In this document: positions 1,416-17,966 of the stretch, piece by piece
Layout: every line of letters begins with the position of its first letter
Numbering within the stretch: position 1 is the stretch's first letter
Source: a virus
Lineage: Duplodnaviria > Caudoviricetes
IMG/VR virus record: IMGVR_UViG_3300001335_000513
Span: 1-57,162 of that record
Strand: one strand, 5' to 3'
DNA length: 57,162 bases
Translations under genes and position numbers: made by a program
Notes under the pieces: generated by a model
What the model was told of the DNA's origin: nothing
Database searches by the model: none
The model's input: the letters and a program-made list of their open reading frames with translations, nothing else

Positions 1416-1676
1416 CTATTTATAAACAAATCTGTTGTTGCAATTAAGGATTGAAACAGCATAACAATCATACAAATTACACCATCCGGTTTTTTTATTA
1501 AAGTTGCAACATAAAATACATCCTTGAATTTTTGGAAAATTAATTTTACGTAACTCTGTTACTTGTTCGTATGTTTTACCAATACAATATTTACAAGAAT
1601 GATAACGTATATTTCGGTCATCGATTTTATACCAAAAAGTAACAGATTTTCGTTTAAAACAAATTTGACACAACAT
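1416..1676 (-). CDS. small Cys-rich protein, putative Zn-binding
   Basis: CQIC, CKYC, CILCC motifs. Confidence 0.55.
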   Translation of the reverse strand: MLCQICFKRKSVTFWYKIDDRNIRYHSCKYCIGKTYEQVTELRKINFPKIQGCILCCNFNKKTGWCNLYDCYAVSILNCNNRFVYK

Positions 1677-1687
1677 AAGTATGATTA

Positions 1688-2260: not shown

Positions 2261-2261
2261 G

Positions 2262-2726: not shown

Positions 2727-2730
2727 AGCT

Positions 2731-3675
2731 TTAAGTGTTAATGATTTTTAAATAATTATTTGTTAATTTGTCCGGGTCGGTATTCATAATCATTTTGATT
2801 ATAAATTCGGCCCATAAACGATTTGAAACAATAATGCTTTCTAATCCTACATTTTCCGGAATAAGTATGCTTGTACCTACATTGTAAAGGTCATAAGCAT
2901 TTTTAATCTCTTTACTGTCTGCCGCTTCACGAAGTTTCATAACAAACCGATAAATGTCGTCTTTAAGAAACGGTACTTTTCTTTCACCTTTTCCAGAATT
3001 AACAGTCATTATGAATAAATGACCAATCAAAGTTGGTATCATATCATTATCCAGGTTTACTCTTACTTTCTGCATAGCCTTAACGATATCACCATTTACT
3101 GAACAAACTTGTTTGAAGTCATTTATAAAATGTGTTACCCGTTCAATCATTTCATAATATTCAATTGCGTTGTCGTTTCCTAAACCGGAAGTACTCAAGA
3201 TTGAACCTTTACCGCCAAGAATACACAAGTTTGAACATACAGTGTAATTCAAACCAAATGCAATTTGAACACCACTTTGGTTATATGCTACAGCAATAAC
3301 ACCATTATGTTTGGGTGGATATTCATTAGGAATAACAATCCTTGTAATAAGTTTATGAAAAACCCATTTGTTAAACGGTACTGGCATTAGTGGATCAAAA
3401 CCTTCTTTTTGCATTTCAGAAAGTTCAAAATCTTTTGATGAATTTAATTTTGATACAATAATGTCTTCTTGTAAAAAACTAATTTCTGCTTTTTCAAGTA
3501 ATTCATGGATTCTTCTTAAAAGTAAAGCCGGATGTTCAGGTCGGTTTGGAAATGGTTTTCCGGAAGAAGAAACAATATTTCTGGACTGTGCTAACTGATG
3601 AATAGTAATTTTAGCAATCTGTTCTTTTTCGGGAAAATTAAAAGTTTCCTGTGTTTTAATTTCTGGATTTTCCAT
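2731..3675 (-). CDS. DUF932/DUF3871-like phage protein
   Basis: IAVAYNQSGVQIAFG..VCSNLCI and AYDLYNVGT motifs. Confidence 0.6.
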   Translation of the reverse strand: MENPEIKTQETFNFPEKEQIAKITIHQLAQSRNIVSSSGKPFPNRPEHPALLLRRIHELLEKAEISFLQEDIIVSKLNSSKDFELSEMQKEGFDPLMPVPFNKWVFHKLITRIVIPNEYPPKHNGVIAVAYNQSGVQIAFGLNYTVCSNLCILGGKGSILSTSGLGNDNAIEYYEMIERVTHFINDFKQVCSVNGDIVKAMQKVRVNLDNDMIPTLIGHLFIMTVNSGKGERKVPFLKDDIYRFVMKLREAADSKEIKNAYDLYNVGTSILIPENVGLESIIVSNRLWAEFIIKMIMNTDPDKLTNNYLKIINT

Positions 3676-3906
3676 TTTAATAATATTTAGTTAATTAATA
3701 ATTGGTAAATAAATGATGGTTTTTTATAATTTATCATGCCGTAGATTAAAAAAAAGGACTGTTATTTGCCAAAATGTCTATCATAGAGTGCCAGAAACAT
3801 ACCCATAACAAGTTATGAAAATTATCCATGAAGTAACATTAATAAAGCAAATTAACAGCCCAAGACGATAAAAATAGATGAAAATATAAGATAAATACTG
3901 AAAACA

Positions 3907-5220
3907 TTAATAATCTAAACTAATGTTAGTATTAATTTCCATCGATTTTATAAGTTCAAAAATAATACTGTTTACAAAAATTTCGTTTTTATGAGATAAA
4001 TTATTTTTGTAATATGTGTTGGCAGAAATAATTATGTTTGCTAAATCAAACTGACTATTAAAACTTTTAATATTAGAGTATAGAATAGCATTATTACGGT
4101 CAATATAAAAGTATTTTGAATCAGGTGATTTAATAGCTATTATCTTTTTAATTCTTAATTTATAATTAGAATTAATAAAAAGAGTTAAAACTTTAGTTAA
4201 ATTATTGTTTTGCTCTTCAGACAAACCAGTAATATCCAAATTTTTTGGTTTATCTTGGAAGGGATCATGAACAAAATTAAGTTCATTGTAATATTTACCA
4301 TAAAGACTTATATACAAACCAAGATTAAGATAAACACAATTAGAATTACTTGCGTAAAATCCACTGTATTCATAAGGAACAATGGTTTTTCCTATTAATG
4401 CTTCTTTCCATTCGGATAATAAATTTAATCCAGACATATTGACTTTGCTTTCAATAAACTTTGAATTTGTTGAAGCTTCAATGAAATTTTTAATAATGTT
4501 AACATCATTACATTTTTCATAAAACAAACTTAATATTGAAAGAATATCAAAATAATCAGCCAATCTGTCTTCACCAATTTTAAGTAAGTCAAATTCATAA
4601 TCGTATAGTGAAGATAAAGATTCATTATTATAGCATAATATTCCGTGTCGATAAATTCTTACGTTTCCTTCACGTGAAGAAGATAAAATTGCTCCGTATT
4701 CATTTCGGTACTTTGCGTGTGTATTGACTGAAAAATATTTATCCCAATTAGAACAAATTTCGTTTAATTCATCGTTAAGTTCAATTAAAAATGTCGTGTA
4801 ACCTTTACGAATCGGTAAAACATCTTCTTTGTTGTCACATACGTAACATGTTGAATCACCTTCGTCAATTGCATTACAATAAATCTCTCTTATAGCTTGC
4901 CATAAACTCCAATCAGCACCCATCAGAGTCGTAATGCTTGTTTCAATATCATCAATCAATATCAATTTATAATCTATGTTGCGAAAAGACTTGTCAATAG
5001 TTGAAGTATGTATGTTTTTCAGACCACTGTAAATATTAATGTTAAAATCGTTCCTGAGTAAATATGCCAAAGCATATTTGATACCTGTACCAAAATAACC
5101 AATTTTGTTTTTTACGTTTTTACCTTTAACATCCCTTTTATCAGTAATGCCAAGCAAATACAAAGCTTCTGTTTCAATTTCGCCTTTGTTTGAAATTGCT
5201 AAATATTTTTTGTTTTTCAT
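3907..5220 (-). CDS. GHKL (HATPase_c/HSP90-like) ATPase-domain protein
   Basis: IGYFGTGIKYA (G-box-like) and REIYCNAIDEG (N-box-like). Confidence 0.7.
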   Translation of the reverse strand: MKNKKYLAISNKGEIETEALYLLGITDKRDVKGKNVKNKIGYFGTGIKYALAYLLRNDFNINIYSGLKNIHTSTIDKSFRNIDYKLILIDDIETSITTLMGADWSLWQAIREIYCNAIDEGDSTCYVCDNKEDVLPIRKGYTTFLIELNDELNEICSNWDKYFSVNTHAKYRNEYGAILSSSREGNVRIYRHGILCYNNESLSSLYDYEFDLLKIGEDRLADYFDILSILSLFYEKCNDVNIIKNFIEASTNSKFIESKVNMSGLNLLSEWKEALIGKTIVPYEYSGFYASNSNCVYLNLGLYISLYGKYYNELNFVHDPFQDKPKNLDITGLSEEQNNNLTKVLTLFINSNYKLRIKKIIAIKSPDSKYFYIDRNNAILYSNIKSFNSQFDLANIIISANTYYKNNLSHKNEIFVNSIIFELIKSMEINTNISLDY

Positions 5221-5222
5221 GA

Positions 5223-5837
5223 CTATGAGTTATTTGAATTATTCTTTTTATCAAATATGAATTCTACAAAATGTACGATATATAAATACGTATTCAAATA
5301 TATTTGACATTGATTTTCACTTATATATCCTAACTGATAAAGTTTGTAGCCGAATGATATAGAAAAAATATTTACCATTCGAGTTTTGTCAAAATGATGG
5401 TTACCCATATAACTGAAATTAAAATCAAAATTATCATTAACTATATCTTTAATTAGACATAAAAAAGCATGTATTGATTTTAATGGAAAATCATCATCCG
5501 TTATGTTTTTTGTAGTATTTAATATATTCATCAATTCTTCCAAATTAATATCTTCATTACCCATAAAACTAAAACTTAATGAAAAAGAATTTCCATCAGT
5601 CTTCGATTTAAAGTAATTACTTATAAAATTTTCGAAATCACATCCATAAACTTTGAGAAAACTTATTATTTCCATAATTATAGAACTACTGTCCTCATCA
5701 AGTTCTTTTAATTTGTCCATTAAAATATTAGTAACCTCTAAAGAATTAATGTCAAAGGATTTTTGAGCAATCATTTTCATCGCTTCACTTTTTGAATACT
5801 CAGGTAATGGAATAAATACAAATTCTTTGTCTTTCAT
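5223..5837 (-). CDS. hypothetical protein
   Basis: 204-aa ORF, operonic. Confidence 0.65.
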   Translation of the reverse strand: MKDKEFVFIPLPEYSKSEAMKMIAQKSFDINSLEVTNILMDKLKELDEDSSSIIMEIISFLKVYGCDFENFISNYFKSKTDGNSFSLSFSFMGNEDINLEELMNILNTTKNITDDDFPLKSIHAFLCLIKDIVNDNFDFNFSYMGNHHFDKTRMVNIFSISFGYKLYQLGYISENQCQIYLNTYLYIVHFVEFIFDKKNNSNNS

Positions 5838-5849
5838 GACTGTATGTTT

Positions 5850-6311
5850 TTAATTATTGATTTGTAATAAGGTAATATCTTTTATAATTGTTCCGGCAAT
5901 AAGAATCATTTCACCATATCCATATCTACCAATTACTGCATTCCACAATTTACCCGACAATGTCATTTTTATCAATACGAAACAATAATTTTCTGAACAT
6001 TTATTATGCCAATTGTTAAGCCCAGAAAGTAATTTTAAAGCATCTTCTTTTTCAACAAATACAGAAGTTTTACCAAAATATTCCTTTCTTATAAAACGAC
6101 AATGGTCACTTTTGGTCAAATCTCTTGTGTTAAAATTATGATTAAAATAAGTAGTCATAGCTTTAGATACCTTAATCATTTTTACCGGACCTATTTTGTA
6201 AAGCATCCCTGTCGCTGGCGAATATAACTTACCAGTTTTTTTGTTCAGTACTGCAACCTTCCATCCAGTAAATTCTTCTTCTTCTTCAAACCTATCTATT
6301 AGTATACACAT
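5850..6311 (-). CDS. hypothetical protein
   Basis: 153-aa ORF, operonic. Confidence 0.65.
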   Translation of the reverse strand: MCILIDRFEEEEEFTGWKVAVLNKKTGKLYSPATGMLYKIGPVKMIKVSKAMTTYFNHNFNTRDLTKSDHCRFIRKEYFGKTSVFVEKEDALKLLSGLNNWHNKCSENYCFVLIKMTLSGKLWNAVIGRYGYGEMILIAGTIIKDITLLQINN

Positions 6312-6339
6312 AACTTTTATTATTTATTGGTTAAAAATG

Positions 6340-6415
6340 AAAAGGAAAAAAGAGTCCCGGAGAAGAACAAAAACCGGGACTCCGTCATGAAAAATCCCTG
6401 CTGTTATACAGGAAT
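6340..6415 (-). ncRNA. candidate antisense sRNA or 3'-UTR element ending in an intrinsic terminator
   Basis: Minus strand: 7-bp hairpin (6394-6415), TTTTTCATGAC linker, 9-bp GC stem 6352-6360/6374-6382, T tract. Confidence 0.5.
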
Positions 6416-6424
6416 ATCTTTTAA

Positions 6425-7111
6425 TCAATTCTTGTTTATTGATGATATATGTTTTAAAACTTTATCCTTAATACTTGAATCAATTTTTAAAATTGATTCA
6501 TTAGTTTCTTGTACAATCCCGTCAAGAATTACATATGTAATTTGTAGTATCAAACATTCTTTATCTGTAATTACTGAATCCCTTCGCATATATTCAAATA
6601 TATCATAAAACATCTGAAAATATAAACTCATAGATTCATTCTCAAAATTCTTGACCCGCCTTTTACCAGTAAAACTAACAAAATCTGGCTCAGTTAAGTA
6701 TTCTTCTAATACATTGGAATAACACTCTGCAATCTTACAATTTATATAGGTTGTAGGACCAATATGATTTTTCGAAAGTTCTTTTAATTTTGTAATTTCT
6801 GAATTTAAAATACCTGGTTCTGAATAATTACTAGCTATTAAAGAATTTACAAAACGTGACGTGAGTATATTCATTGTCAACAAAAAAGTATTTATGTGTG
6901 AACAAATCTTAACCAAATGTTTGTATGATGTCTCTTTAATCTTATCGTCTTTATCATCTTTGTGAAAAAAATGAAAAATTATTTTAAAATATGAATTTAT
7001 TAATTTATCCCGTATTGGTTCATCTTCACTTAATGAAGATAATTCATCCCTTAATGATGTGTAAATCCCAATCATCGATTCATACAAATCCTTTTTTAAT
7101 AACTTTTTCAT
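6425..7111 (-). CDS. hypothetical helical protein (start revised from 7201 to 7111)
   Basis: In-frame ATG 7111 lies 36 bp from a CCATCATTT motif, the same spacing as at genes starting 3675 and 9978. Confidence 0.65.
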   Translation of the reverse strand: MKKLLKKDLYESMIGIYTSLRDELSSLSEDEPIRDKLINSYFKIIFHFFHKDDKDDKIKETSYKHLVKICSHINTFLLTMNILTSRFVNSLIASNYSEPGILNSEITKLKELSKNHIGPTTYINCKIAECYSNVLEEYLTEPDFVSFTGKRRVKNFENESMSLYFQMFYDIFEYMRRDSVITDKECLILQITYVILDGIVQETNESILKIDSSIKDKVLKHISSINKN

Positions 7112-7217
7112 GACTCTTTTTTTTAAGTTTATTTTTGTTAGCAAGTAAATGATGGCCTGTCCTTGACCTTCAAACTTTTTTGTAATACTTTTGTAGTTCA
7201 TTAATATCCCTTATCCT

Positions 7218-7335
7218 GTGAACAAAAAGTACAAATATAGTGAACTAAAAATATCTAATAATAGTTCAGTTTTTCCCCATATAAAGTGTACAAAAAGTTC
7301 ACAGTTCCTGAACTCCCAGTTCATACTACGTGAAC
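7218..7335. repeat. iteron-like TGAAC/GTTCA cluster, candidate replication origin
   Basis: Seven TGAAC/GTTCA copies in both orientations within about 120 bp, just upstream of the RepL-like gene. Confidence 0.55.
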
Positions 7336-7411
7336 TAATCACTCCTGTGTATCAGTCAATTAAATACTTCCCCTCTTAATACTCTTATATAACACTTAAA
7401 AACCATAGTTT

Positions 7412-7981
7412 ATGAAACCTAAAATCCAATACAAAGATCGTCAAAGATTTCAGAAAAATCCTTTCATTAACCAATTAAAAGCTACGCTTATCAAAACAGT
7501 TAAATCCGAACAATTCGGTACTGAACAAATTATCGTTAATCAGTCTACTGGTGAATTCGAAGGATCTCCTGTCCTTATTAGAAAAAGAAAAGTAGATGCT
7601 AATAAATTTGTTAAAATGTATATTAATACTATGACCGCTTGGCTTAGCCTTTCTCCTAAAGCTCAAAAAATCCTTTACCTTATTATCCAAAATATGAAAC
7701 CTAATTCTGATATCGTTAAAATCGATCCCAATAGTCAAGACGTGAAAAACAGTACTGGACTCAATTCTAAAGTGTCTATATACGGAGGACTCGACGAGTT
7801 AATTGACCGGAATATAATAGCCAAGGCGAGGTATGTTGATCAATTTTACATAAATCCGAGTGTAATGTTTTCGGGTAACAGGATACTATTCATAGAGATG
7901 TTAGAGAAGAACGGAAGTGAGCGAAAGATGCTTTCTAAGGATTCTGACTCATCAAAGTTAGAAGAGTACGAGATGGATTAA
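7412..7981 (+). CDS. repL: RepL-like replication initiator (wHTH)
   Basis: NPF...TGE...VDANKFVKMY...IYGGLDELIDRNIIAK..FYINPSVMFSGNR pattern of RepL-type proteins. Confidence 0.75.
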   Translation: MKPKIQYKDRQRFQKNPFINQLKATLIKTVKSEQFGTEQIIVNQSTGEFEGSPVLIRKRKVDANKFVKMYINTMTAWLSLSPKAQKILYLIIQNMKPNSDIVKIDPNSQDVKNSTGLNSKVSIYGGLDELIDRNIIAKARYVDQFYINPSVMFSGNRILFIEMLEKNGSERKMLSKDSDSSKLEEYEMD

Positions 7982-8074
7982 TACTTATGAATCGGTTAGG
8001 TGAATTTAATGAACCGGTTCGGTGCATTATTTATCATTTTGAAAAAAAAAGATGGATTCAGGAAGAATATTCAT

Positions 8075-8082
8075 TATATTTG
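8075..8082 (+). promoter_or_regulatory. Bacteroidota -7 promoter element (TAnnTTTG)
   Basis: TATATTTG; points into about 70 nt of non-coding sequence ending at the terminator 8124-8156. Confidence 0.4.
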
Positions 8083-8123
8083 CAATCTTATACCTCTCAT
8101 CATCTTTTGTCAAAGCCCGATGT

Positions 8124-8156
8124 AAAAAAAAGCCCCTCTTGGATGAGGGGCTTTTT
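8124..8156. terminator. bidirectional intrinsic terminator
   Basis: A8-GCCCCTC-ttggat-GAGGGGC-T5 between convergent genes. Confidence 0.85.
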
Positions 8157-8159
8157 GGT

Positions 8160-8801
8160 TTAGAAGTTGTCATCGACAGCTTTCGCTTTGATGACTTCAA
8201 CTTTACCGTTGAGGATGCTGGTTGAGCCAGTATATCCCCACTTGTTGAACGAGCCGATGTCGGGGGGTGCTTGTCGGTTCATATAAGTGCGGTTTTTAAC
8301 AACAGCACTGAACCGGCAACCGGGCAGGTCGTTGATTTTTGCACCTTTTACGGGTAGGGCTTCCCAAACGCCAGGTTCTTTCTCTCTTTCGCACGAAGCG
8401 AACATAGAGTTAAGAATGTTCAGGGCAGCCTTTTCCTTAACAGGTGAAATCAGCCGACGTTTTGTTTCAACGTCGACAGCGTATCCTGCCGGATGGCTCG
8501 AACGGAAATACCCGGTAGTATCGGACAGTTCATCGAATTTCACAAATCCAACGATGTTGAATCTGTGAAATGCGAGTTGTCCGTTTTCAGCACGGATACC
8601 GAGTAACAGTTGCTCGTGTTCGTCGGTGTAGTCAACACCGGCTTCATCGAGTTCTGCTTGCGTCTTGCGTTCACCTTCGAGGTTTTTTATCCGGTCGCTT
8701 TCCAGCACCTTAACTACCTCAATGGTGAAGTTGTGACGCCCGTCATCCAGGGTGCCATAGTTGGTCACCGGGATGTCGGATTTAAACTTCGTCAAGTTCA
8801 T
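8160..8801 (-). CDS. possible ssDNA-binding (OB-fold-like) protein
   Basis: LDDGRHNFTIE N-terminus and acidic-aromatic C-terminus (DDNF); function inferred; visibly GC-richer than flanks. Confidence 0.5.
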   Translation of the reverse strand: MNLTKFKSDIPVTNYGTLDDGRHNFTIEVVKVLESDRIKNLEGERKTQAELDEAGVDYTDEHEQLLLGIRAENGQLAFHRFNIVGFVKFDELSDTTGYFRSSHPAGYAVDVETKRRLISPVKEKAALNILNSMFASCEREKEPGVWEALPVKGAKINDLPGCRFSAVVKNRTYMNRQAPPDIGSFNKWGYTGSTSILNGKVEVIKAKAVDDNF

Positions 8802-8823
8802 AGCTTATGAATTTGAAGTTTTG

Positions 8824-8849
8824 TGGCAATATTGCCAAGTAAATGATGG
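8824..8849 (-). promoter_or_regulatory. CCATCATTT motif plus TGGCAATATTGCCA palindrome
   Basis: Near-identical copies at 9519-9545 and 9997-10022. Confidence 0.75.
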
Positions 8850-9190
8850 AGAAAACTATCAAATACTGTGAAAATGATGGTTTTTTCAAACCACACCAAC
8901 CACTGTCGGGCGTAGCCCGATAGTGTGCATGAGTGAATCCATGAAGCATTGTTGTGCAAAACAACAAGGCTTTATGGATGAGCGATTGCATGATGGTGTA
9001 TACATTAGTGGCTGTGGTGAATGATTTATGTGCTGTGGTACCCTGGTATCAAAATGTAAAAAAAATGCATTCTATGCAAAAGGGTTCATGAATTAGATAC
9101 ATAAATAAGGTGAATTGGATTTGTGAGAAAAGAATTAAAAAAAAACCTTGCGTTGTGCAAGGTTTTACATAATCATACGATGTTTCAGGG

Positions 9191-9499
9191 TTAGCTGGAT
9201 TTTGACTCATCTTCAGCAAAAGGCTGTACAGGGTCATAAAGAATTGCTGCACATTCTTCACGAGTTTGGATATCACCAAACATTTTTTCACAAAGAATAC
9301 TTAACCTTTCTTTTGGAGAAAGTAATTCAGTGTTCGATGTGTCGTGTTTTTCAACCTTCTTTTTCATAGGAGTATTTTCCGAATCATTGTAATCATGCAG
9401 AATTTCATGAAACAGTTGTTTTACGACTTCAGCTTCATTAACAGTCATAATGAAACGGATTTTTGAAATCCCATACCCTTTGTCTAAACGTTTTTGCAT
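9191..9499 (-). CDS. hypothetical early protein
   Basis: ORF preceded by the conserved leader motif. Confidence 0.65.
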   Translation of the reverse strand: MQKRLDKGYGISKIRFIMTVNEAEVVKQLFHEILHDYNDSENTPMKKKVEKHDTSNTELLSPKERLSILCEKMFGDIQTREECAAILYDPVQPFAEDESKSS

Positions 9500-9518
9500 A
9501 ACTTTAAAGTTTATATTG

Positions 9519-9545
9519 TTGGCAATATTACCAAGTAAATGATGG
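9519..9545 (-). promoter_or_regulatory. CCATCATTT motif plus palindrome (one variant base)
   Basis: CCATCATTTACTTGGTAATATTGCCAA on the minus strand. Confidence 0.75.
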
Positions 9546-9595
9546 TCTGAATTGAATGTGTGAATCTGTAAATGTATGAATTAAGAAAAAGAAAA

Positions 9596-9625
9596 GAAAA
9601 AAAATCCCTGTCAATGACAGGGATT
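9596..9625 (-). terminator. intrinsic terminator
   Basis: AATCCCTGTC/GACAGGGATT stem with a T tract on minus, after the stop at 9640. Confidence 0.8.
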
Positions 9626-9639
9626 GCTATGAAGTTGAA

Positions 9640-9978
9640 TTATGCAAGAGCAAATTCAACGAATGCAGGATGAGCAATGTGAATCTCAACTTCTTCATTT
9701 GAAGAGTCAAGGACGGCAGTGGCAACAGCTTCATTGCTAATCGAAGATTGTTCAATTAAGACGTTGATGAAGTCTCTTTCCTTTTTAGGGATTACAACCG
9801 GATATCCCAGATGCTTCATCTCTTCTATGAGATTGCCAGGTGATAATGTTTTGGCAACAAAGTTTGGACTGTCTTTAGGCTCTTCAGGAAGTTTTGCTCC
9901 GATTATGAAGTGCCCTCTTTTCTTGTCAACTATTAAATGCAATATGCATTCAACATTGTTAATCAAAAATTTATTCAT
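9640..9978 (-). CDS. hypothetical early protein
   Basis: ORF flanked by the leader motif and a terminator. Confidence 0.7.
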   Translation of the reverse strand: MNKFLINNVECILHLIVDKKRGHFIIGAKLPEEPKDSPNFVAKTLSPGNLIEEMKHLGYPVVIPKKERDFINVLIEQSSISNEAVATAVLDSSNEEVEIHIAHPAFVEFALA

Positions 9979-9996
9979 AGCTTTAAAGTTTAATTA

Positions 9997-10022
9997 TGGC
10001 AATATTGCCAAGTTAATGATGG
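9997..10022 (-). promoter_or_regulatory. CCATCATTA motif plus palindrome
   Basis: CCATCATTAACTTGGCAATATTGCCA on the minus strand. Confidence 0.75.
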
Positions 10023-10024
10023 TG

Positions 10025-10165
10025 TTATGGCATAGAACGTTCAAATTCTTCCATAACTGAAATACATTCACGGCAATAACCAAAAATGCGAATGCTGCTA
10101 ATGTCTGATGAATTGTGGTATTCGTTACCACAACAAGTACATAATTCATTGTCTTGTTCTTTCAT
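10025..10165 (-). CDS. 46-aa putative Zn-ribbon microprotein (not in ORF track)
   Basis: MKEQDNELCTCCGNEYHNSSDISSIRIFGYCRECISVMEEFERSMP; AAAGCT-ATG context. Confidence 0.65.
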   Translation of the reverse strand: MKEQDNELCTCCGNEYHNSSDISSIRIFGYCRECISVMEEFERSMP

Positions 10166-10208
10166 AGCTTTGTTGTTTAATGGTTAATAGAAATCAAAAA
10201 AAAAAGGG

Positions 10209-10313
10209 TCAATCCCTTTTTCTTTTTGATAAACCAAGTATGTCTGCCCAACCTGCTATCCCAAACACAACAAGTATTATCCAGACTATTACTTCAAATA
10301 TTGTCCATTCCAT
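10209..10313 (-). CDS. 34-aa single-TM microprotein (not in ORF track)
   Basis: MEWTIFEVIVWIILVVFGIAGWADILGLSKRKRD; CCATCATAT motif at 10337-10345 upstream; hairpin and T tract at the stop. Confidence 0.65.
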   Translation of the reverse strand: MEWTIFEVIVWIILVVFGIAGWADILGLSKRKRD

Positions 10314-10351
10314 AGCATATGATTTTTAAGTTAATAATATGATGGCAAATG

Positions 10352-10648
10352 TTATTTGCAATACTTTGCAATTAACTCCACAAGTATATCACCATGACAA
10401 GGTAATGGTTTTCACCAACACCCAAGCACTTTGCCTTTCAGTTCACATAAATGCTTTAATAAATATTTGCCTTCACCATTGGTAATCCATTCACGGTATG
10501 CTTCAATAGCCTCATGTCTGCTACCCACAACATATTTAGCAAGTGTTTTACCATCTTGTTTATGTGTGAATGGATTACCCCATTTACTCGGTCTTCCGAT
10601 ATACACATCATACGGTGCTTTCTTGCAATGTACAACCATGTTTTTCAT
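10352..10648 (-). CDS. DUF4326 protein with in-frame TGA at 10412-10414 (recoded, pseudogene or sequence error)
   Basis: VVHCKK..YDVYIGRPSKWGNPF...LKGKVLGCW*KPLPCHGDIL; the family motif continues past the TGA to TAA at 10352. Confidence 0.85.
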
Positions 10649-10705
10649 AGTATAAGGTTTTAAGTTAGTAAAATGATGGTTTGTGAAGATAAAAAAAAGA
10701 GAGGT

Positions 10706-10990
10706 TTAACCCTCTCTTAAGTAAGTCTTCAGCACCCTGACAATATACTCCGTCAGGGTACTGTATGGCTTTCGTGTATTTTGGTTCATCTGCCATGAAC
10801 CTTGGCCGTTATGGCAGCAGTCAAAATACACAGATTTCTCTGTTTTGTACTTATAGATATTGAATGAATATTCTACAGCCCCACATGGGCTGTAGAATGC
10901 CTTTTCGGCCACATAATATTTGTGGCCGAAAATAATGATAACGGCTCTTAACTCGTTATCATTGGTCAACCTAACGTTAACTACTTTCAT
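10706..10990 (-). CDS. hypothetical early protein
   Basis: ORF with motif at 11048-11056 upstream and an AAGAGAGG/CCTCTCTT terminator at its end. Confidence 0.7.
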   Translation of the reverse strand: MKVVNVRLTNDNELRAVIIIFGHKYYVAEKAFYSPCGAVEYSFNIYKYKTEKSVYFDCCHNGQGSWQMNQNTRKPYSTLTEYIVRVLKTYLREG

Positions 10991-11057
10991 TTATATTACC
11001 ACTGCCCTGTGGATTTGTTTTGGCATCTGGCTCGCCATTCATCAATAAGATGATGGT

Positions 11058-11082
11058 AAAAAAAGGGTGCCGAAGCACCCTT
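11058..11082 (-). terminator. intrinsic terminator with UUCG tetraloop
   Basis: AAGGGTGC-TTCG-GCACCC-T7 on the minus strand. Confidence 0.9.
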
Positions 11083-11085
11083 AAC

Positions 11086-11424
11086 TTAGTTAAGACAATA
11101 GTTGTCATCCACCATACCCGTTTCTTCTGGTAATAAGATAGGGTTTATCCTGTAGATGTTAAATAAATGTGTCACATTATCTATTCCTGCTTGTCCAAGA
11201 ATAGTATTGGATATGACACCAAGGCCCTGCAAGAAAGAAATTAATTCTTTTTTGCAAGACGGGATGGTAGTCGTTGATGCCATACCAGGCTTGACAATTG
11301 GCAAGCACTCTGTATAATCGAGTACCTTGCCATTACTTATCAATATAACCTGGTACATGCCTGACGGCTGCCCGACAAAGTTTATCCCTGATAACACTTT
11401 GCCATTATAGATAAAATTATTCAT
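11086..11424 (-). CDS. hypothetical early protein, first leftward gene
   Basis: ORF with motif at 11432-11440, only 8 bp from the ATG. Confidence 0.7.
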   Translation of the reverse strand: MNNFIYNGKVLSGINFVGQPSGMYQVILISNGKVLDYTECLPIVKPGMASTTTIPSCKKELISFLQGLGVISNTILGQAGIDNVTHLFNIYRINPILLPEETGMVDDNYCLN

Positions 11425-11542
11425 AGCAATAAAATGATGGCCCCCCTGGAAGGAAACCTATAAGGCTTTCCATATAGAAGCAGATGGCCTTATGGATTCA
11501 TAAATTTCAAAATTTTTTTTTGATTTTTTTTTAGGTATAAGA

Positions 11543-11550
11543 TAACTTTG
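11543..11550 (+). promoter_or_regulatory. Bacteroidota -7 promoter element
   Basis: TAACTTTG with TTTG at about 11519-11522; upstream of the first rightward gene. Confidence 0.6.
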
Positions 11551-11566
11551 TAAAAAAGGAATAGAT

Positions 11567-11962
11567 ATGGTACACTTATTAATAATATTGTTTGGGATAT
11601 GGAACGGTTACGTGATTCGATGGAGAAGACGGAACGATAAGCGAGATAGCAAGAGATGGCATATTGTCGGAAGGTTGTGTGTAGGATTGTTGCTTTTTAT
11701 GGGGATTTTGCCATTATTTTCATGGGGTGTTTATGTAATTAATCCGTTTTTGTTACTAAGTCCGTGGCATGGAGGAGTAGTTACGTTATTTCTTGCATTT
11801 GGCTGTTCTTACTGGATATATGATATGATAATCAATTACATTAACGGCTGGGATTGGGATTATTCTGGTTCAAAGGATAGCAGGTTTTGGCGAGGGGAGT
11901 TATATGTATGGATATTTCTGGTAACGATATTATTAATATTTGGGAACAGGTTAGACGGATGA
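11567..11962 (+). CDS. multi-pass membrane protein, possible holin
   Basis: About four hydrophobic segments; overlaps the endolysin start. Confidence 0.55.
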   Translation: MVHLLIILFGIWNGYVIRWRRRNDKRDSKRWHIVGRLCVGLLLFMGILPLFSWGVYVINPFLLLSPWHGGVVTLFLAFGCSYWIYDMIINYINGWDWDYSGSKDSRFWRGELYVWIFLVTILLIFGNRLDG

Positions 11963-12393
11963 GTTTATTTGGCACAAGTTTCAGGATAGAAGAATTTGTA
12001 CCACCGGAGACGGTAGAACGTTGGGGATTAGGACGAAGTATATGGTTTGTACGGCCACACGTAGTATTATTTTGTTCACACATAAAGGAGACTTTTGGTG
12101 GTATATTAACGATAAACAATTGGTATTGGGGAGGTGTATTCAAGTACAGTGGATATCGGCCACCAGATTGCGATGTAGGTGCTAAAGAATCTTCACACAA
12201 GCGGAGTGATGCGGTAGATATGCGAAGTACAGGAATAGGAGTAGAAGAATTGAGTGATTACATAGAGAGGAAATATTCGTTATTGCACAGTCGTTATTTA
12301 CTAACGGGAATAGAATTAGGGACGAGTAGTTGGACACATGTTGATTTTCGATGCACTGGATTGGATTATTTACATAAAATACCTTATCAATGA
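11959..12393 (+). CDS. peptidase M15-like endolysin (start likely ATG 11959)
   Basis: SGYRPP..VGAKESSH..SDAVD and WTHVDFR Zn-peptidase motifs. Confidence 0.8.
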   Translation: MSLFGTSFRIEEFVPPETVERWGLGRSIWFVRPHVVLFCSHIKETFGGILTINNWYWGGVFKYSGYRPPDCDVGAKESSHKRSDAVDMRSTGIGVEELSDYIERKYSLLHSRYLLTGIELGTSSWTHVDFRCTGLDYLHKIPYQ

Positions 12394-13091
12394 TAAATAA
12401 AATAAAGTTAATAGGATTATTTATATTGTTTGTATTAATGAGCGGTTTGTACATTCAGGAATGTATCAAGCGTCAGCATGTTGACGGATTAAATATTGCT
12501 CAGATGGAACAATTTGAATTAGAGCGGAATTATTTAATATCGAAGTATGACAGTTGTTTATTGAGTAAGAGTACAATTGATACGATACGAGACACGATAT
12601 TTAAATATTTAGGTTACAAATACATTAAGAAGGAATTGACGGCAGTAGATTCGATAAAGATACACGAATATTTTTTATTAAGTGATGACGGAACAGACAC
12701 GGTTGATATTTATGAGAAGGAATATGATGGAATACTGGAGAGTGAGGATTTCGAATTAGTATGGTATGCGAGGGTATTTGGTGAATTGGAAGAGTTAAGT
12801 TTTCCACATTACCGTGTATACAAGGAAAAGATCATAGAGAATTGGGTTATCAACAATCCGGCACCGCCATCAGAGGAAAAGATAGAATACAAATATAGGC
12901 GAGGTATTTATTTAGAAGGGTCTTTAGGGAATAGTATGGAGAGTTGGAAGAGTTGGGAGAGTATAGATGGTGGAATAGGATATTTAACCAGACGAGGGAT
13001 AAGTTTTGGGATTAACTACGAATATTTTGTATTTAAAGATATTAGAGGACAATTTTTACGATTACGATTAAGATATTACTTGGGCAAGTAG
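12390..13091 (+). CDS. membrane-anchored, spanin-like lysis accessory protein
   Basis: N-terminal TM, amphipathic beta-strand C-terminus, coupled to the endolysin. Confidence 0.5.
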   Translation: MINKIKLIGLFILFVLMSGLYIQECIKRQHVDGLNIAQMEQFELERNYLISKYDSCLLSKSTIDTIRDTIFKYLGYKYIKKELTAVDSIKIHEYFLLSDDGTDTVDIYEKEYDGILESEDFELVWYARVFGELEELSFPHYRVYKEKIIENWVINNPAPPSEEKIEYKYRRGIYLEGSLGNSMESWKSWESIDGGIGYLTRRGISFGINYEYFVFKDIRGQFLRLRLRYYLGK

Positions 13092-13174
13092 GGTCCTTGC
13101 CAAGTGTTTTTCATAATTATTTTTTTTGGGTTAATCACCGGTTTGGGGCTTAAAAGACCAAGCCGGTGTTTTTT
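13083..13174 (+). ncRNA. candidate antisense sRNA or 3'-UTR element with terminator
   Basis: GGCAAG/CTTGCC hairpin, TGTTTTTCATAATT linker, 11-bp stem 13136-13168, T6. Confidence 0.45.
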
Positions 13175-13277
13175 CATATTTGAAAAACCCATCATTTTAT
13201 CACTTAATGTTTAAATATTAGTACAAATATGTTAATAAATTTTGAACTTGATTATTGTAATTTTTAGAAATAATAAT

Positions 13278-13285
13278 TACATTTG
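13278..13285 (+). promoter_or_regulatory. Bacteroidota -7 promoter element
   Basis: TACATTTG about 7 nt before the hairpin at 13293. Confidence 0.6.
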
Positions 13286-13291
13286 AAAATA

Positions 13292-13378
13292 TTTCCGGCT
13301 AAATTTAGTTGGAAGGTTGTTCATAGCTTTAATTACCTTATGTGGCCGGAGTTAAGGAATGCGCTCCGGCCATTTTTT
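13292..13378 (+). ncRNA. candidate ~87-nt antisense sRNA
   Basis: Promoter element, 9-bp 5' hairpin with two G-U pairs, GTTCATAGCTTTAA linker, 9-bp terminator stem, T6. Confidence 0.6.
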
Positions 13379-13391
13379 AAAAAAGATGTTT

Positions 13392-13667
13392 ATGTCAGAT
13401 AAATATATAATAAAGAATGAACATTTACTGATGGATGTTGCCAGGTACAAAATTGGATGGATGTTTATATCAGTATGTAACAGTGGTATGGGTCGTATGA
13501 TATTGCGTAATTCGTTAGAAATGGTCAGGAGTGCGAATTACGAAGCGATGTTATTGTTATTTGATGAAAATGAGAGGAGTCTTTCAGGTTACATTTACAT
13601 TTTTGACAGTGCTGAGCAATACGAATGGTTTATGAAAGAAACAGATTATGTTGAATGGGAAATATAA
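13392..13667 (+). CDS. hypothetical protein (start revised; ATG 13359 lies inside a terminator loop)
   Basis: In-frame ATGs at 13386 and 13392. Confidence 0.55.
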   Translation: MSDKYIIKNEHLLMDVARYKIGWMFISVCNSGMGRMILRNSLEMVRSANYEAMLLLFDENERSLSGYIYIFDSAEQYEWFMKETDYVEWEI

Positions 13668-13692
13668 TTATTAACTTTTAAAAAATGACATT

Positions 13693-14565
13693 ATGAAAGT
13701 AGAACATTTCAAGATTGTTGATGATGGACGAGGTGGTATCATTGTCAATGGAACAGATGTTAAAGAGAAAGAATCAGGCATACATGCCATTGTTGATTTT
13801 TCTTTGACATTTCGCACACCGATTCCGAATGATCTTTTTGACCACATTCAAAAATTGAAGTTATTTTTTCTTCAGTTGACAGGACATTGGGAAGATGGTT
13901 TATCAAAATACCTGGAGATGGATTTTTCTTTGAAGGACCAGGAGAATGACGAACGTTATTTACGGGCCTATTGGTTGTATGAGAATACAGTTATTACAGG
14001 GTTAAAGGCGAAGGATGATTATTACATCATAACCGGTAAGATTACGAATCGTTATGGTCAGACAATTGGTATGAGTTCACCAAAGGTTACATATGATACG
14101 GCTTATTCTGGTTTTTCTCATATGGTTTCTTTGGCAAACGAACTTGTTGGTAATGTAGAAAAATTTGTCAATGACCGGAAATTGCGAATGATGGAACCCC
14201 GGCAATATGTTTTGGATTTGTTCAAAGATGCAGAGCCACATGATTTGGAATCGATTCGCAAGATGAACGATGAACAGGTTCGTGAAGTACTTCTTAGTGA
14301 ATTGGAACGTAAAAATGCCATTGTTATTGGTGTTAATGTTCCTGATAATAAAGAAGAGCCAAAAGATGAAATTTTCGTAAAGAAAGATGAAGGGGATGTT
14401 GAAACTAAGGAAAAAGTTGAAGAAACTGAAAAGAGTAAAACTTCGTCAAAGAAAGATCCATTAAATAAAAGTTCAAAACCTGCTTCAAAAGCACCCAAGA
14501 ATGTTCCAGAGGTTAAGAAGCAAAAGGTAAAGACTGCTGAAGAAATTGCTGCAGATGACTTTTAA
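13693..14565 (+). CDS. hypothetical protein with charged low-complexity C-terminus
   Basis: 290-aa ORF ending ADDF. Confidence 0.7.
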   Translation: MKVEHFKIVDDGRGGIIVNGTDVKEKESGIHAIVDFSLTFRTPIPNDLFDHIQKLKLFFLQLTGHWEDGLSKYLEMDFSLKDQENDERYLRAYWLYENTVITGLKAKDDYYIITGKITNRYGQTIGMSSPKVTYDTAYSGFSHMVSLANELVGNVEKFVNDRKLRMMEPRQYVLDLFKDAEPHDLESIRKMNDEQVREVLLSELERKNAIVIGVNVPDNKEEPKDEIFVKKDEGDVETKEKVEETEKSKTSSKKDPLNKSSKPASKAPKNVPEVKKQKVKTAEEIAADDF

Positions 14566-14586
14566 ATTACAATTGATTTGATTGAC

Positions 14587-14620
14587 AAGGACAGAATTTG
14601 ATACATCAAGTTCTGTCCTT
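14587..14620 (+). terminator. 15-bp hairpin, likely terminator or processing site
   Basis: AAGGACAGAATTTGA-taca-TCAAGTTCTGTCCTT followed by a T-rich tract. Confidence 0.65.
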
Positions 14621-14659
14621 TATTATTTAGGGGAAAAAATAATATTAAAAAAAAATAAA

Positions 14660-15490
14660 ATGTTTTTAACAGATACATCAATAGAGTTCATTGAAAAAGG
14701 ACACAAATATATTTTAAAAAAATATCCTGATGTTGTTCCATTGAGTACAACAAGAATGATAAAAAGTTTTTGTGAACCTTTTGACAGAGAAAAGATTTCT
14801 TATTTTGTTGCCAGGGCAAACTTGCGAAAAGAGTTAAAACAAAGAAGAGAAGTTACTGAACAAGAAATATTAAAAGAAAAAAAGAAGGTATTAAAACTTT
14901 GGGATTCAAAAGCTGATATAAGTCAGAAACATGGGAATTACATTCACGATATAATGGATTCTGGTTTTCGTGGTATGCCTGTACCATACCATATGTCAGA
15001 AATTTTTAATGAGTTATGGATTTATTTCAGCAAATATGTTCAAATAAGTAGTGAAGCGAATATTTGTTTGTATGAACATTTCATAACTGGCCGGATAGAT
15101 TATTTTTGTTACAGGCAGAAAAATTCTAATGTTGTAGATTTGAAAGATATTAAGACAAATCTTTTCAATAAGATAAGATTTGATTCTACACTGATTAAAG
15201 AAGGTAGGATAAAGCATTATGACAGATATATGCTTGAACCATTGGATTATCTTGAGGATTGTGATTATAACAAAATGGTTCTTCAATTAAGCACATATGC
15301 TTACATATTGGAAAGGCAATACGGTTTACGAATAGGTTCATTGGAGATTATACATATTGATACAGATAGTGATATATTGATTGAAACTGACAAAATGCCT
15401 AATTTTGTAATCAACAGATATCCGGTTGCATATATGCGAGATGCTGTAATAAAAATGATTGAAGCAACGACAGGTTCTGGATATTTTTAA
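14660..15490 (+). CDS. PD-(D/E)XK nuclease (start likely ATG 14660)
   Basis: HGNYIH, SSE, GRID, DIKTN and LQLSTYAYILE motifs. Confidence 0.8.
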   Translation: MFLTDTSIEFIEKGHKYILKKYPDVVPLSTTRMIKSFCEPFDREKISYFVARANLRKELKQRREVTEQEILKEKKKVLKLWDSKADISQKHGNYIHDIMDSGFRGMPVPYHMSEIFNELWIYFSKYVQISSEANICLYEHFITGRIDYFCYRQKNSNVVDLKDIKTNLFNKIRFDSTLIKEGRIKHYDRYMLEPLDYLEDCDYNKMVLQLSTYAYILERQYGLRIGSLEIIHIDTDSDILIETDKMPNFVINRYPVAYMRDAVIKMIEATTGSGYF

Positions 15491-15501
15491 AATGTTGTGT
15501 T

Positions 15502-15939
15502 ATGCCAGGTGTATTTACTGTAATTCTATCCGAGGATTACACTTATAGCCCATACAAGTTAAAGCCAAAGATTGAGCGACAACAGTTAGCTATGCATAGA
15601 GTATGGGGTAAAGACAAACCAGATATTTCAAAAATTGAAAATCTGAAAGAAGCTATATCTGAATACCAAAGTTTAATTTTTGACACTTTAAAATTTAAAC
15701 GTGATACATACACAGCGAAACTTGTACAATTATCCAAGAGTCTTGATACGGAACAAGAGCCCGCCCGGATTACTTCTATTTTAAAAGCAATTGAATTGGT
15801 TGAAGACCGGTTACATTTAATCGAAAATGAAATAGACAGATCAGAAGAAAAGATTGAACTTTCAGGAGAAAGAAAAATATCATTAATAGAAAGGTTAATG
15901 AGAAGGAGAAAAGAATATCGTGATTTGTTAACCGATTAA
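15502..15939 (+). CDS. helical protein upstream of terL, possible terminase small subunit
   Basis: Position and coiled-coil character. Confidence 0.45.
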   Translation: MPGVFTVILSEDYTYSPYKLKPKIERQQLAMHRVWGKDKPDISKIENLKEAISEYQSLIFDTLKFKRDTYTAKLVQLSKSLDTEQEPARITSILKAIELVEDRLHLIENEIDRSEEKIELSGERKISLIERLMRRRKEYRDLLTD

Positions 15940-15941
15940 TA

Positions 15942-17966
15942 ATGAGTGAATATTATTCTCCCATAATAAAGAAACGTAATTTTGACCCTTATCCTGTAAG
16001 AGGTAAGATTCCACATTTTGCCGATAGTTTGAATAATCCAGATTGTGTTAATACACCACTTTATCTTGAATGGTGGGAACAGCAATTTGATAGACTTTTG
16101 AATGGATACACGACAGGTGGTATTTGGATACCTGGACCATATTATTATTGGTTAAATTTCCAATTTCTGGAAGGACTCTATGGAAGTATAAGACCTGATT
16201 TTGTGGACACACAATACAGGTTTTTTTTATTAATGGATGAGGCCGAAAAAGACCCGAACTGTAGTGGTATTTTAGTTCCTAAAGCAAGACGTAAAGGTGT
16301 ATCCTTAATGGTTATTTCCCGGGCAAACCATGGAATGCGTTTCATTGACGATTATCGAATGGGAGTAGTTAGTGGTCTGGACACATGGGTTACTGGTTTC
16401 AGAAACAAACTTTACAAAAATTTTAATAATGTTCCACCAGAATTAATGGTGAATTGGTTGCGGAAGAACGATGACGAATTTCATATAGGATATCCTGAAA
16501 TAATAAACGGACAAAAAAGAGAAGTTTTAAATGCCTTATTGAATTTTAAAACTTTGCATGACCAAGCTGAGAAACTTGAAGGTGAGTATTTTCACCATAT
16601 TGTTATGGAAGAAACGGGTCATTTTGAAAAAGCACTTGAAGCACATGATTCTTTAAAGCCAGGGTTAATGATTGGAGATAAGGTCATTGGCGTTTTTTTT
16701 ATCTATGGTACCGGTGGAAACATGCTCAAAGGAAGCAAGGCATTTAAAACATTTTATAATTACCGAGATTCTTATCAATTAAAGTATTTCTTTATTCACG
16801 GTGCAAACTATTACTATCCATATTACCGAGGGGCGGTTGATGCAAAAGGTAATGCTTGTCATGATACTCCAAATTTAGACAAGGATTTTAAAGGATATAG
16901 GAAAGAGCAACTAATTGGTTGTGAGGATTTTAAGTATGCTGATGAAAAAATTGTAGAAGGTATTGCATTAAGGGCAAAAAATCCAGACAAAAAACAATTA
17001 ATAAAATGGAAGCAGTCATATCCAAGATGTTTGGATGATGTATTTAATTCTTCAGGGAGTAATCATTTCGATAATGATAAATTATATCAAAATCTTTTTG
17101 ATATTGATTCCAAACAAAATTTAACTTATGGTGAATATTGTTTAGATTGGGTAAAGGATAAAAATGGGGATATTAAAATTCCTTTTGAAGTGAAACCCAG
17201 ACCAGCAAGGTCTTCTGATAAAGATTGGCAAATCGTGAAAATTGCTTCGCATCCTACTGGATATAAAGACCTTGATATTGTCGGTGTGGATGGTTATAAC
17301 GAAGACAATACTTTAACAAGTTCTTCATTGGGTGCTGTGGTTGTTATAAGAAACCATAAAGATATTCCGGATGAAGATGGAAAGATTGGTTTAATACCAG
17401 TACTTTTATATTACAAAAGACCACCCAGGAAAGAATTATTTTGGGAAATGTCTTTAAAAATTAGTGTATACTATAAGGCTTTTAAGAACACTATGATTTC
17501 TGCTGAAAGTGATATGGTAATTCAGTATTATAAAGATACTGGTGCTAAAAAGTATTTATCACCAAGACCAAAAAGTTTTGATTCACCAGACAGCAAAATG
17601 CTTAATGATTATGGAGTTAAAATGACAGTATATTCGAAACCGAGGATGATGTCTATATTGCAATCGTATGTTGACGATTTTATTTATTTAAATGCATTTA
17701 AAGAAATTACTTACGATTTAATATCTTATGATGAAGAAAATATCGGTACTGACTGGGATTCTGCTGATGCATTAGCATATGCAATCATACGTATTATAGA
17801 CAGTAGGAGAAGACCCAAAATAGATGAAAACAGAAGAAAAGAAGCTGAGCATATGTCTATTTACGGTAAGGCAGAAAATAAGTCTGATGAATATGAAAAA
17901 GAAGAAAATAAAAAAGATATTGAATTAATAAAAGAAGAATTAAAATCTCACCTGGAAAGTTTCTAA
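15942..17966 (+). CDS. terL: terminase large subunit
   Basis: KARRKGVS Walker A, IVMEE Walker B, GTGG, VGVDG nuclease motif, D..DA; crAss-type GYT.GG..IPG.YY.WLNF. Confidence 0.92.
   Translation: MSEYYSPIIKKRNFDPYPVRGKIPHFADSLNNPDCVNTPLYLEWWEQQFDRLLNGYTTGGIWIPGPYYYWLNFQFLEGLYGSIRPDFVDTQYRFFLLMDEAEKDPNCSGILVPKARRKGVSLMVISRANHGMRFIDDYRMGVVSGLDTWVTGFRNKLYKNFNNVPPELMVNWLRKNDDEFHIGYPEIINGQKREVLNALLNFKTLHDQAEKLEGEYFHHIVMEETGHFEKALEAHDSLKPGLMIGDKVIGVFFIYGTGGNMLKGSKAFKTFYNYRDSYQLKYFFIHGANYYYPYYRGAVDAKGNACHDTPNLDKDFKGYRKEQLIGCEDFKYADEKIVEGIALRAKNPDKKQLIKWKQSYPRCLDDVFNSSGSNHFDNDKLYQNLFDIDSKQNLTYGEYCLDWVKDKNGDIKIPFEVKPRPARSSDKDWQIVKIASHPTGYKDLDIVGVDGYNEDNTLTSSSLGAVVVIRNHKDIPDEDGKIGLIPVLLYYKRPPRKELFWEMSLKISVYYKAFKNTMISAESDMVIQYYKDTGAKKYLSPRPKSFDSPDSKMLNDYGVKMTVYSKPRMMSILQSYVDDFIYLNAFKEITYDLISYDEENIGTDWDSADALAYAIIRIIDSRRRPKIDENRRKEAEHMSIYGKAENKSDEYEKEENKKDIELIKEELKSHLESF

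Follow-up and report, generated by a model that had tools for sequence, protein, structure and literature searches.

An oriented CCATCAT motif heads the leftward gene units of a divergent crAss-like phage record and is a candidate promoter for a phage RNA polymerase

Background

Coliphage N4 has a virion RNA polymerase (RNAP) of the T7-like single-subunit type, for which DNA hairpins upstream of the start serve as promoters. In T7, T3 and SP6 the same promoter frame carries a few fixed base changes that match each phage's own polymerase, and the promoter of PeSL elements, considered below together with cassette exchange, is an early promoter of the host RNAP. Here, we describe a short motif, CCATCAT, that heads leftward genes in IMG/VR virus record IMGVR_UViG_3300001335_000513. 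The whole record (57,162 bp, 32% GC) was analysed and is called the window below. Judging by its position and orientation, the motif is probably a phage-specific transcription start signal; that it is the promoter of the leftward genes read by a virion RNAP of the phage is a narrower claim, for which the sequence suggests a chance close to even, if anything slightly lower.

According to the available part of a preprint, gp66 of phi14:2, a crAss-like phage, makes early, rifampicin-resistant transcripts. The Thermus phage P23-45 has a two-barrel RNAP fused to a giant virion (tape-measure) protein, and a conserved short AT-rich motif upstream of its pre-early transcription start sites (TSSs) is common to relatives with the fusion, as reported in the accessible text of that paper (PMC10770324). 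A review likens, in the part available, the N4-like early programme with an injected polymerase to Crassvirales (PMC10136315). As for T4-type phages, the available text of another paper describes PeSLs as small composite terminator/promoter units flanking variable open reading frames (ORFs) without assigned function in hyperplastic regions (PMC4122927).

In comparison with these systems, the window resembles phi14:2 in its enzyme: gp66 (PDB 6VR4) is the best fold match of a domain encoded in the window, and both have a DFDxD-type catalytic motif and a location in the structural block. The motif, however, reads DFDID in gp66 and DFDGD in the window, where the domain lies at amino acids (aa) ~2930-3430 of a 5610-aa fusion. 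For gp66 the search for a promoter motif gave none, whereas the window has a strong head motif; the phi14:2 early region, unlike that of the window, consists of long operons with few intergenic gaps, and the terminase of the window shares only about 23% identity with its counterparts in known crAss-like phages. P23-45 is the nearest worked example, combining a two-barrel RNAP fused to a giant protein with a short conserved motif, but it belongs to another phage type and host, and its TSSs and polymerase occupancy were measured, whereas the window is known from sequence alone. The likeness to N4 lies in an injected polymerase and phage-specific early promoters, both conjectural in the window; N4 has a hairpin at every promoter, whereas a palindrome in the window is present at 3 of 12 motif copies and lies downstream of the motif. 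PeSLs are matched by composite terminator and head units around variable ORFs, although recombination was demonstrated there by close phage pairs and the window is a single divergent record. The T7/T3/SP6 switches resemble the difference between CATCATTTTAYT in the window and AATTATTTTAYT in its relatives, with polymerases of another class.

A phage-polymerase promoter heading early cassettes is a known kind of element, while the motif of the window, its counterpart in the family and the apparent switch between them were not found in print in the searches made. Literature searches returned no description of a promoter for a crAss-type virion RNAP, nor of these motif words, and the word promoter does not occur in the available text of the 2023 Crassvirales review (PMC10136315). 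An oriented motif, with a two-base variant at orthologous genes of relatives, makes the way in which giant crAss-like virion RNAPs locate early genes experimentally testable. The motif also helps to annotate early transcription units of uncultured phages within the clade.

Results

Enrichment and orientation of the motif

Leftward ORFs occupy positions 258-11424 of the window, and rightward ORFs extend from 11567 to the record end. CCATCAT has 23 matches in the window. Among 100 shuffles the average is 10.13 (sd 2.54) and the highest count 18, and none reaches 23. On the minus strand lie 22 of the 23 copies, and 11 fall within the 2757 nt (4.8% of the window) called intergenic; a twelfth, at 7149-7155, sits between two candidate ATGs of one ORF. 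Read in register, the sites consist of CCATCAT, 0 or 1 base, and then TTAYT. The extended pattern CCATCATN{0,1}TWAYT, i.e. CCATCAT(N0-1)TWAYT, has nine matches versus 0.37 (sd 0.58) in shuffles. All nine extended copies are on the minus strand, all nine head a cassette or an operon, and none lies in the rightward structural block.

With crude gene calls, 8 of the 23 CCATCAT copies fall in sense-upstream windows and none in antisense ones (p 1e-6). CCATCAT is also the top 7-mer in a de novo screen of the 70 nt preceding ORF starts; earlier k-mer screens were distorted by spurious ORF calls and collagen-like repeats, and the upstream-window screen was used. In an alignment of five heads, conservation begins exactly at CCATCAT and is lost upstream, the invariant part being CCATCAT and not the part that resembles a -7 box. 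Conservation of the motif extends to 9-12 unit heads.

The initial annotation had listed ten minus-strand sites, all of which exist as 7-nt matches on that strand, with true plus-strand coordinates 2 higher than those it gave (starts at 3713, 7149, 8843, 8874, 9539, 10016, 10339, 10673, 11050, and 11434). The spacing that it reported (8-58 bp, 36 bp three times) is correct as well, the distances from the end of the 8-mer to the ATG being 8, 58, 23, 24, 36, 38, 40, 36, and 36. Further copies are found at 8990-8996 (minus strand), 13189-13195 (plus strand), and 5394-5400 (minus strand, within an ORF), while another 10 lie inside rightward coding sequence.

Anatomy of the leftward units

Each unit runs from a preceding stop codon or a terminator-like hairpin with T-run through the motif and an A/U-rich, mostly unstructured leader to the ATG, with 16-66 nt between motif start and ATG. 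The motif is the only conserved block between terminator and ATG. The heads and the elements around them are the following.

11428-11440, minus strand: motif CCATCATTTTATT, starting 16 nt before ATG 11424
11044-11056, minus strand: motif CCATCATCTTATT, adjoining the T-run of terminator 11082-11063, 66 nt to ATG 10990
10667-10679, minus strand: motif CCATCATTTTACT, heading the DUF4326 gene
10333-10345, minus strand: motif CCATCATATTATT, heading the 34-aa ORF 10209-10313
10011-10022, minus strand: motif CCATCATTAACT, 2 nt past stop codon 10027-10025
9534-9545, minus strand: motif CCATCATTTACT, heading ORF 9191-9499
8838-8849, minus strand: motif CCATCATTTACT, heading ORF 8160-8801, which is conserved in relatives
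7144-7155, minus strand: motif heading a tightly packed operon from 7111 to 3907 (4 ORFs)
3708-3719, minus strand: motif CCATCATTTATT, heading a tightly packed operon from 3675 to about 258 (about 7 ORFs; first gene 2731-3675)
8874-8880, minus strand: additional CCATCAT, 31 nt upstream of the 8849 copy
8990-8996, minus strand: weak copy (7-mer only), heading the structured non-coding stretch 8881-8996
13189-13201, plus strand: sole plus-strand copy, following a hairpin and T-run and heading a 197-nt structured unit
9191-11424, minus strand: seven small cassette ORFs of 112, 94, 78/98, 34, 46, 112, and 102 aa
9142-11082, minus strand: terminator-like hairpins at 11082-11063, 10718-10697, 10226-10196, 9625-9603, and 9166-9142
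8823-8838: palindrome of the TTGGCAATATTGCCAA type directly downstream of the motif, with other copies at 9519-9534 and 9996-10011

Terminator-like sites in positions 1-16000 number 20, compared with 7.2 (sd 2.8) in shuffles. The five hairpins listed above follow cassette ORFs and precede the next motif, in agreement with the earlier description of cassettes that often carry a terminator. Both abutments described there are also present: terminator 11082-11063 closes with a T-run whose end, at 11057-11058, is followed by the motif start at 11056, and stop codon 10027-10025 is separated by 2 nt from the motif at 10022. The motif is a compact signal at the 5' edge of the leftward units and in sense orientation, and no room is left for upstream promoter elements, in line with the initial proposal. 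Since terminators or stop codons adjoin the motif, a unit behind a strong terminator needs a start signal of its own.

The 16-nt palindrome TTGGCAATATTGCCAA follows three heads (8849, 9545, and 10022) with one mismatch each and occurs nowhere else in the window; the substitution at 9519-9534 preserves RNA pairing as G-U. A sigma-54 reading of the palindrome was rejected because of wrong GG-GC spacing.

The context of the 8880 copy matches that of the plus-strand copy at 13189 in 19 of 20 nt (95%). The stretches 8881-8996 (minus strand) and 13189-13385 (plus strand) both start at CCATCAT, have no convincing ORF, and fold better than shuffles (z -3.56 and -3.37, respectively); the latter ends in a hairpin with T-run that overlaps the annotated ATG at 13359. 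By analogy with phi14:2, which is reported in the available part of the preprint to make abundant early non-coding transcripts, the two stretches may be small early RNAs.

An A-rich element (AACTTAAA, TAAACTTTAAAG, or TAAACTAAA) stands 2-15 nt before many start codons (e.g., 9503-9513, 9982-9992, and 10655-10666). It is also found within operons and in three relatives (G001, G002, and G004). Rather than being part of the promoter, it probably serves translation initiation in a host that lacks Shine-Dalgarno pairing.

Head motifs in related phages

Relatives were compared as whole records (G001-G005), as a relative locus (L048), and as 56 non-redundant loci flanking terminase genes. Upstream of genes in G001-G005, CCATCAT shows no enrichment (p 0.15 or higher), and it occurs in sense-upstream position once across the 56 terminase-flank loci. 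The motif is thus lineage-specific: CCATCAT heads the units of the window, and several relatives use AATTATTY instead. G004 has aAATTATTCTt at 13 unique heads on both strands, and 10 of the 19 copies of AATTATTC there are sense-upstream with none antisense (p 2e-9, terminal duplication removed). In G005 all five copies of AATTATTTTC are sense-upstream (p 3.5e-7). As for G002, its heads read AATTATTyyA, and 8 of 28 AATTATT copies are sense-upstream (p 3e-5). None of the 25 first ORFs behind the heads of relatives encodes a recognisable structural protein.

Orthologous genes allow a direct comparison of heads. ORF 8160-8801, headed by CCATCATTTACT in the window, has orthologues headed by AATTATCC in L048, AATTATTTTATC in G002, and TATTATTTTTC in G001, and in L048 a different inverted repeat occupies the position of the palindrome. 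ORF 2731-3675, behind CCATCATTTATT in the window, has orthologues in G004 and G002, where a terminator precedes the heads AATTATTCTT and ACTTATTTTACT, respectively. Aligned in register, CATCATTTTACT of the window and AATTATTTTACT of G002 share 10 of 12 positions. Compared with AATTATTY, the family motif, CATCATTTTAYT has C in place of A at one position, C in place of T at another, and one more C at the 5' end; these differences are invariant among the copies of the window. That related phages carry a variant motif in the same place, and at orthologous positions, favours a phage-encoded reader over a host sigma factor.

In G001, the word TTTTTAAC was rejected as a head motif: it trails hairpins and may be part of terminator T-tracts. 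The first 50 kb of phi14:2 contain 10 CCATCAT copies, one of them both intergenic and sense (35463). Preceded by a hairpin and located ahead of g055, within 35423-35503 of locus L153, this isolated copy is probably due to chance. In G004 (L143 and L147), positions 1-4953 recur at 89192-94144 with 4951 of 4953 nt identical, and the repeat holds five cassettes headed by AATTATTC. Either a long terminal repeat or overlapping assembly of a circular map would account for it, and the record is classed as linear in IMG/VR.

Host-type promoters on the same record

Among intergenic regions, promoters of the Bacteroidota two-box type were found at two sites only.

11519-11550, plus strand: TTTG-N20-TAACTTTG, before ATG 11567
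53966-53997, plus strand: TTTG-N20-TAnnTTTG, before ATG 54015

These two sites make up two of the four matches in the window and lie within 2.4% of its two-strand sequence. The sigma-A promoter of Bacteroidota has TAnnTTTG as its -7 box, usually with a TTTG (-33 box) located 18-22 nt upstream, and the -33 box is weakly conserved. According to the initial annotation, rightward genes carry host TAnnTTTG elements; such an element is indeed present in 5 of 10 rightward intergenic regions, although the octamer is not enriched overall (98 versus 97.9 expected). Between motif and ATG, TAnnTTTG is absent from all nine heads with the extended motif. Leftward heads without a host box, together with two-box promoters at rightward ATGs, indicate that the leftward units use a start signal that is not the standard one of the host, which is probably a member of Bacteroidota. 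A scan for sigma-70-type promoters was uninformative (83 found, 83.5 expected).

RNA polymerase domain

The candidate reader of the motif is encoded in the rightward structural block.

45914-47416, plus strand: two-barrel RNA polymerase domain, aa 2930-3430 of the 5610-aa ORF 37127-53959

DFDGD occurs once in the 5610-aa ORF, at aa 3397. The homologues of this ORF product, themselves giant proteins 4500-5900 aa long, have TRVPAD.LHSHT.AR ... SGSDFDGDQR as the conserved stretch, and G001, G002, and G004 also encode giant ORFs with DFDGD. For the predicted model of aa 2930-3430 (pLDDT 78, pTM 0.73), the virion RNAP of phi14:2 ranks first among PDB fold matches (6vr4_A, E 2.8e-15, TMq 0.50). Next come QDE-1, plant RDR2, the polymerases of phages P23-45 and P74-26, and large subunits of cellular RNAPs; P23-45 gp96 (8h2n) is among the matches with E 1e-3. 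At the sequence level, the Pfam RdRP match is weak (E 2.3e-4, under the curated cut-off), phmmer and an alignment profile against the PDB gave nothing relevant, and tblastn against phages gave no match. Because the fold search puts the phi14:2 virion RNAP first, the model indicates that the phage encodes a two-barrel RNAP of the gp66 type, which supports this part of the initial annotation. Homology to gp66 and a place among structural genes suggest, by analogy, that the enzyme would be packaged in the virion and injected.

Just past DFDGD, a domain of ~130 aa (aa 3424-3560; 47396-47806, plus strand) matches many unrelated long proteins as well as stand-alone proteins of 126-160 aa (40-57% identity), and corresponds to no Pfam family.

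Discussion

Promoter reading and alternatives

Under the proposed mechanism, the leftward non-structural genes, which are taken to be early, would have CCATCAT(N0-1)TTAYT as their promoter or as the core that defines it. Transcription would start inside the TTAYT part or a few bases beyond it. The reader would be the DFDGD two-barrel RNAP domain of the 5610-aa protein, injected with the DNA as for phi14:2 gp66, and the rightward structural and lysis genes would be left to the host RNAP via TTTG/TAnnTTTG promoters. The motif marks every leftward unit, is strictly oriented, differs from the host promoter found on the same contig, and changes at all copies together between relatives, which argues for a promoter of a phage enzyme; the gp66-type domain is the candidate reader because it is the only such enzyme in view. 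CCATCAT(N0-1)TTAYT would then be the local version of the AATTATTY head motif, a pattern expected from altered polymerase specificity. The motif would, on this account, be the first recognisable promoter consensus for a crAss-type two-barrel virion RNAP, with AATTATTY re-specified to CCATCATT by two fixed changes, a proposal that we hold tentatively and at somewhat less than even confidence. If it is true, the re-specified motif implies co-evolution of polymerase and promoter, as in T7, T3, and SP6, and matched enzyme/promoter pairs are at hand in the window, G002, G004, and G005.

Several observations weigh against the assignment to a virion RNAP. The gp66-dependent early transcripts of phi14:2 have no detectable common upstream motif according to the available part of the preprint, whose primer-extension tables may bear on the matter, and no shared motif was seen in 17 early intergenic regions of that phage. 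One cassette of the window, 10025-10165, has no motif. As for the family motif, the aligned site set of G002 (11 of 28) was chosen by eye, enrichment of AATTATT is seen in neither G001 (21st of 35 words of the same composition) nor G003 (5th), and AATTATY over the 56 terminase-flank loci is found 92 times in sense and 93 times in antisense orientation. In addition, since the record is a partial genome, its missing part could hold the gene of a phage sigma factor, of an activator, or of a second RNAP, and some heads come within one or two mismatches of the host -7 box (TAACTTGG or TTACTTGG).

The possibility of an off-contig factor leads to the alternative that the host RNAP is redirected by a phage specificity factor, either sigma-like or an activator of the T4 MotA/AsiA type, with the motif acting as a Mot-like box. 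Such a factor explains a lineage-specific motif and its change between relatives equally well, the contig is incomplete, and the units end in intrinsic terminators of bacterial type. However, no sigma or known transcription factor was recognised among 23 proteins (482-14565) compared with Pfam or 43 compared with PHROGs, there is no second box at a fixed distance (the AACTTAAA-like element varies from 14 to 34 nt from motif start), and the factor itself would need to be injected if the very first genes depend on it; we regard this explanation as unlikely, although it is the chief rival. Near-matches to the -7 box are what would be expected if the heads were ordinary variants of the host sigma-A promoter, with TTAYTTGG as a degenerate -7 box and CCATCAT as local context: head 10022 has TAACTTGG, which differs from TAnnTTTG at one position, and three heads have TTACTTGG, which differs from it at two. 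It is, however, CCATCAT and not the -7-like part that is invariant, heads 11440, 11056, 10679, and 10345 have no -7-like box there, the true two-box host promoters on the same contig look different, and the TA step of the family motif is lost through the T-to-C change, all of which makes a plain host promoter very improbable.

The motif might also act at another level, as an RNA signal for 5' processing or stability, by which read-through transcripts would be cut into units, or as the site of a regulator, with the palindrome TTGGCAATATTGCCAA as operator. This would fit units that have no terminator before the motif, such as the one behind head 10022, where read-through is possible, as well as the three heads with a perfect or near-perfect palindrome directly past the motif, the substitution that keeps G-U pairing, and the inverted repeat found at the same place in L048. 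Nevertheless, strong terminators stand directly before at least heads 11056 and 10679, where a promoter is still needed and nothing else is conserved, and the palindrome accompanies only a quarter of the motif copies (3 of 12); a role of this kind in place of a promoter therefore appears quite unlikely.

Cassette exchange

The initial annotation had also viewed the motif as a recombination boundary. That claim rests on the terminator-motif-ORF architecture, the sharing of heads and the cassettes absent from relatives, whereas no motif-bounded rearrangement was seen in the contigs of four DNA runs. Taken to its full extent, this view makes the heads mainly sites of homologous recombination that swap cassettes, in the manner of a mobile regulatory cassette of the PeSL type, with the promoter role secondary. 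The composite layout of terminator and head motif around variable ORFs agrees with it and has a precedent in PeSLs, as described in the available text of PMC4122927. Likewise, the seven cassette ORFs have no tblastn match in 147 loci, while the flanking genes match 12-55 loci, and GC content is uneven across the region (43-48% at 8001-8800 versus 22-33% in the left operons). Three heads share 26-29 nt at 90-93% identity before unrelated ORFs; BLASTP of the ORFs behind shared heads, with two pairs compared, gave E-values of 5.6 (9191-9499 versus 9640-9978) and 0.7 (8160-8801 versus 9640-9978). The 26-nt head pattern has no match in viral contigs.

Against exchange as the main function, the contigs of the four runs contain no joint, indel, or alternative junction, and the sequence that most heads have in common is only 12-13 nt long, little for homologous recombination. 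No close relative that could display a motif-bounded swap was found either, megablast against phages giving no match and a single-protein terminase scan of viral contigs no close relative. In place of two cassettes of the window, L048, a distant relative (terminase 63%, 8160-8801 orthologue 38%), has a single unrelated one. Heads that serve mainly for recombination thus seem extremely improbable, while a recombination role added beside that of a promoter is possible, though doubtful.

Phage type and other features of the record

The sequence of the window is present in aquatic and freshwater metagenome runs, among which no RNA run was found for positions 7000-13500. The leftward ORFs are mostly without assigned function, except for one RuvC-like and one DUF4326 protein. 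Rightward products include an endolysin-like protein, an exonuclease, the large terminase, the portal, the major head protein, virion proteins, and the 5610-aa ORF. PHROG matches in the window comprise TerL, the portal, and the major head protein. According to the best tblastn matches, the terminase is 21-24% identical to those of named crAss-like phages, e.g., Azobacteroides phage ProJPt-Bp1 and cr4_1. Metagenomic relatives of the terminase are many (40-74% identity), some of them on contigs of 80-94 kb. Judged by the TerL, portal, and capsid matches and by the giant RNAP-containing protein, the window is a divergent crAss-like (Crassvirales-like) phage. Because contigs of relatives reach 80-94 kb, the record probably covers about 60% of the full genome. 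Scans of the window with Rfam (gathering threshold) and for tRNAs gave no match in either case.

The right-end ORFs 54643-57162 (plus strand) carry collagen-like Gly-x-Thr repeats, which are the source of the spurious k-mer enrichment, and probably encode tail fibres. The divergent intergenic region 7202-7411, between a leftward operon and the rightward gene 7412-7981, holds at least seven TGAAC/GTTCA repeats in both orientations and resembles an iteron or operator array. Finally, the DUF4326 gene 10352-10648 (minus strand) has an in-frame TGA at 10412-10414, where the family keeps Cys (...LGCW*KPLPCHGD...). The TGA could mark a pseudogene, a read-through site, or a selenocysteine site. When it is read as Cys, the Pfam match spans positions 3-82 of the 82-position model with E 3.5e-27, and the letters of the TGA are identical in contigs of three runs.

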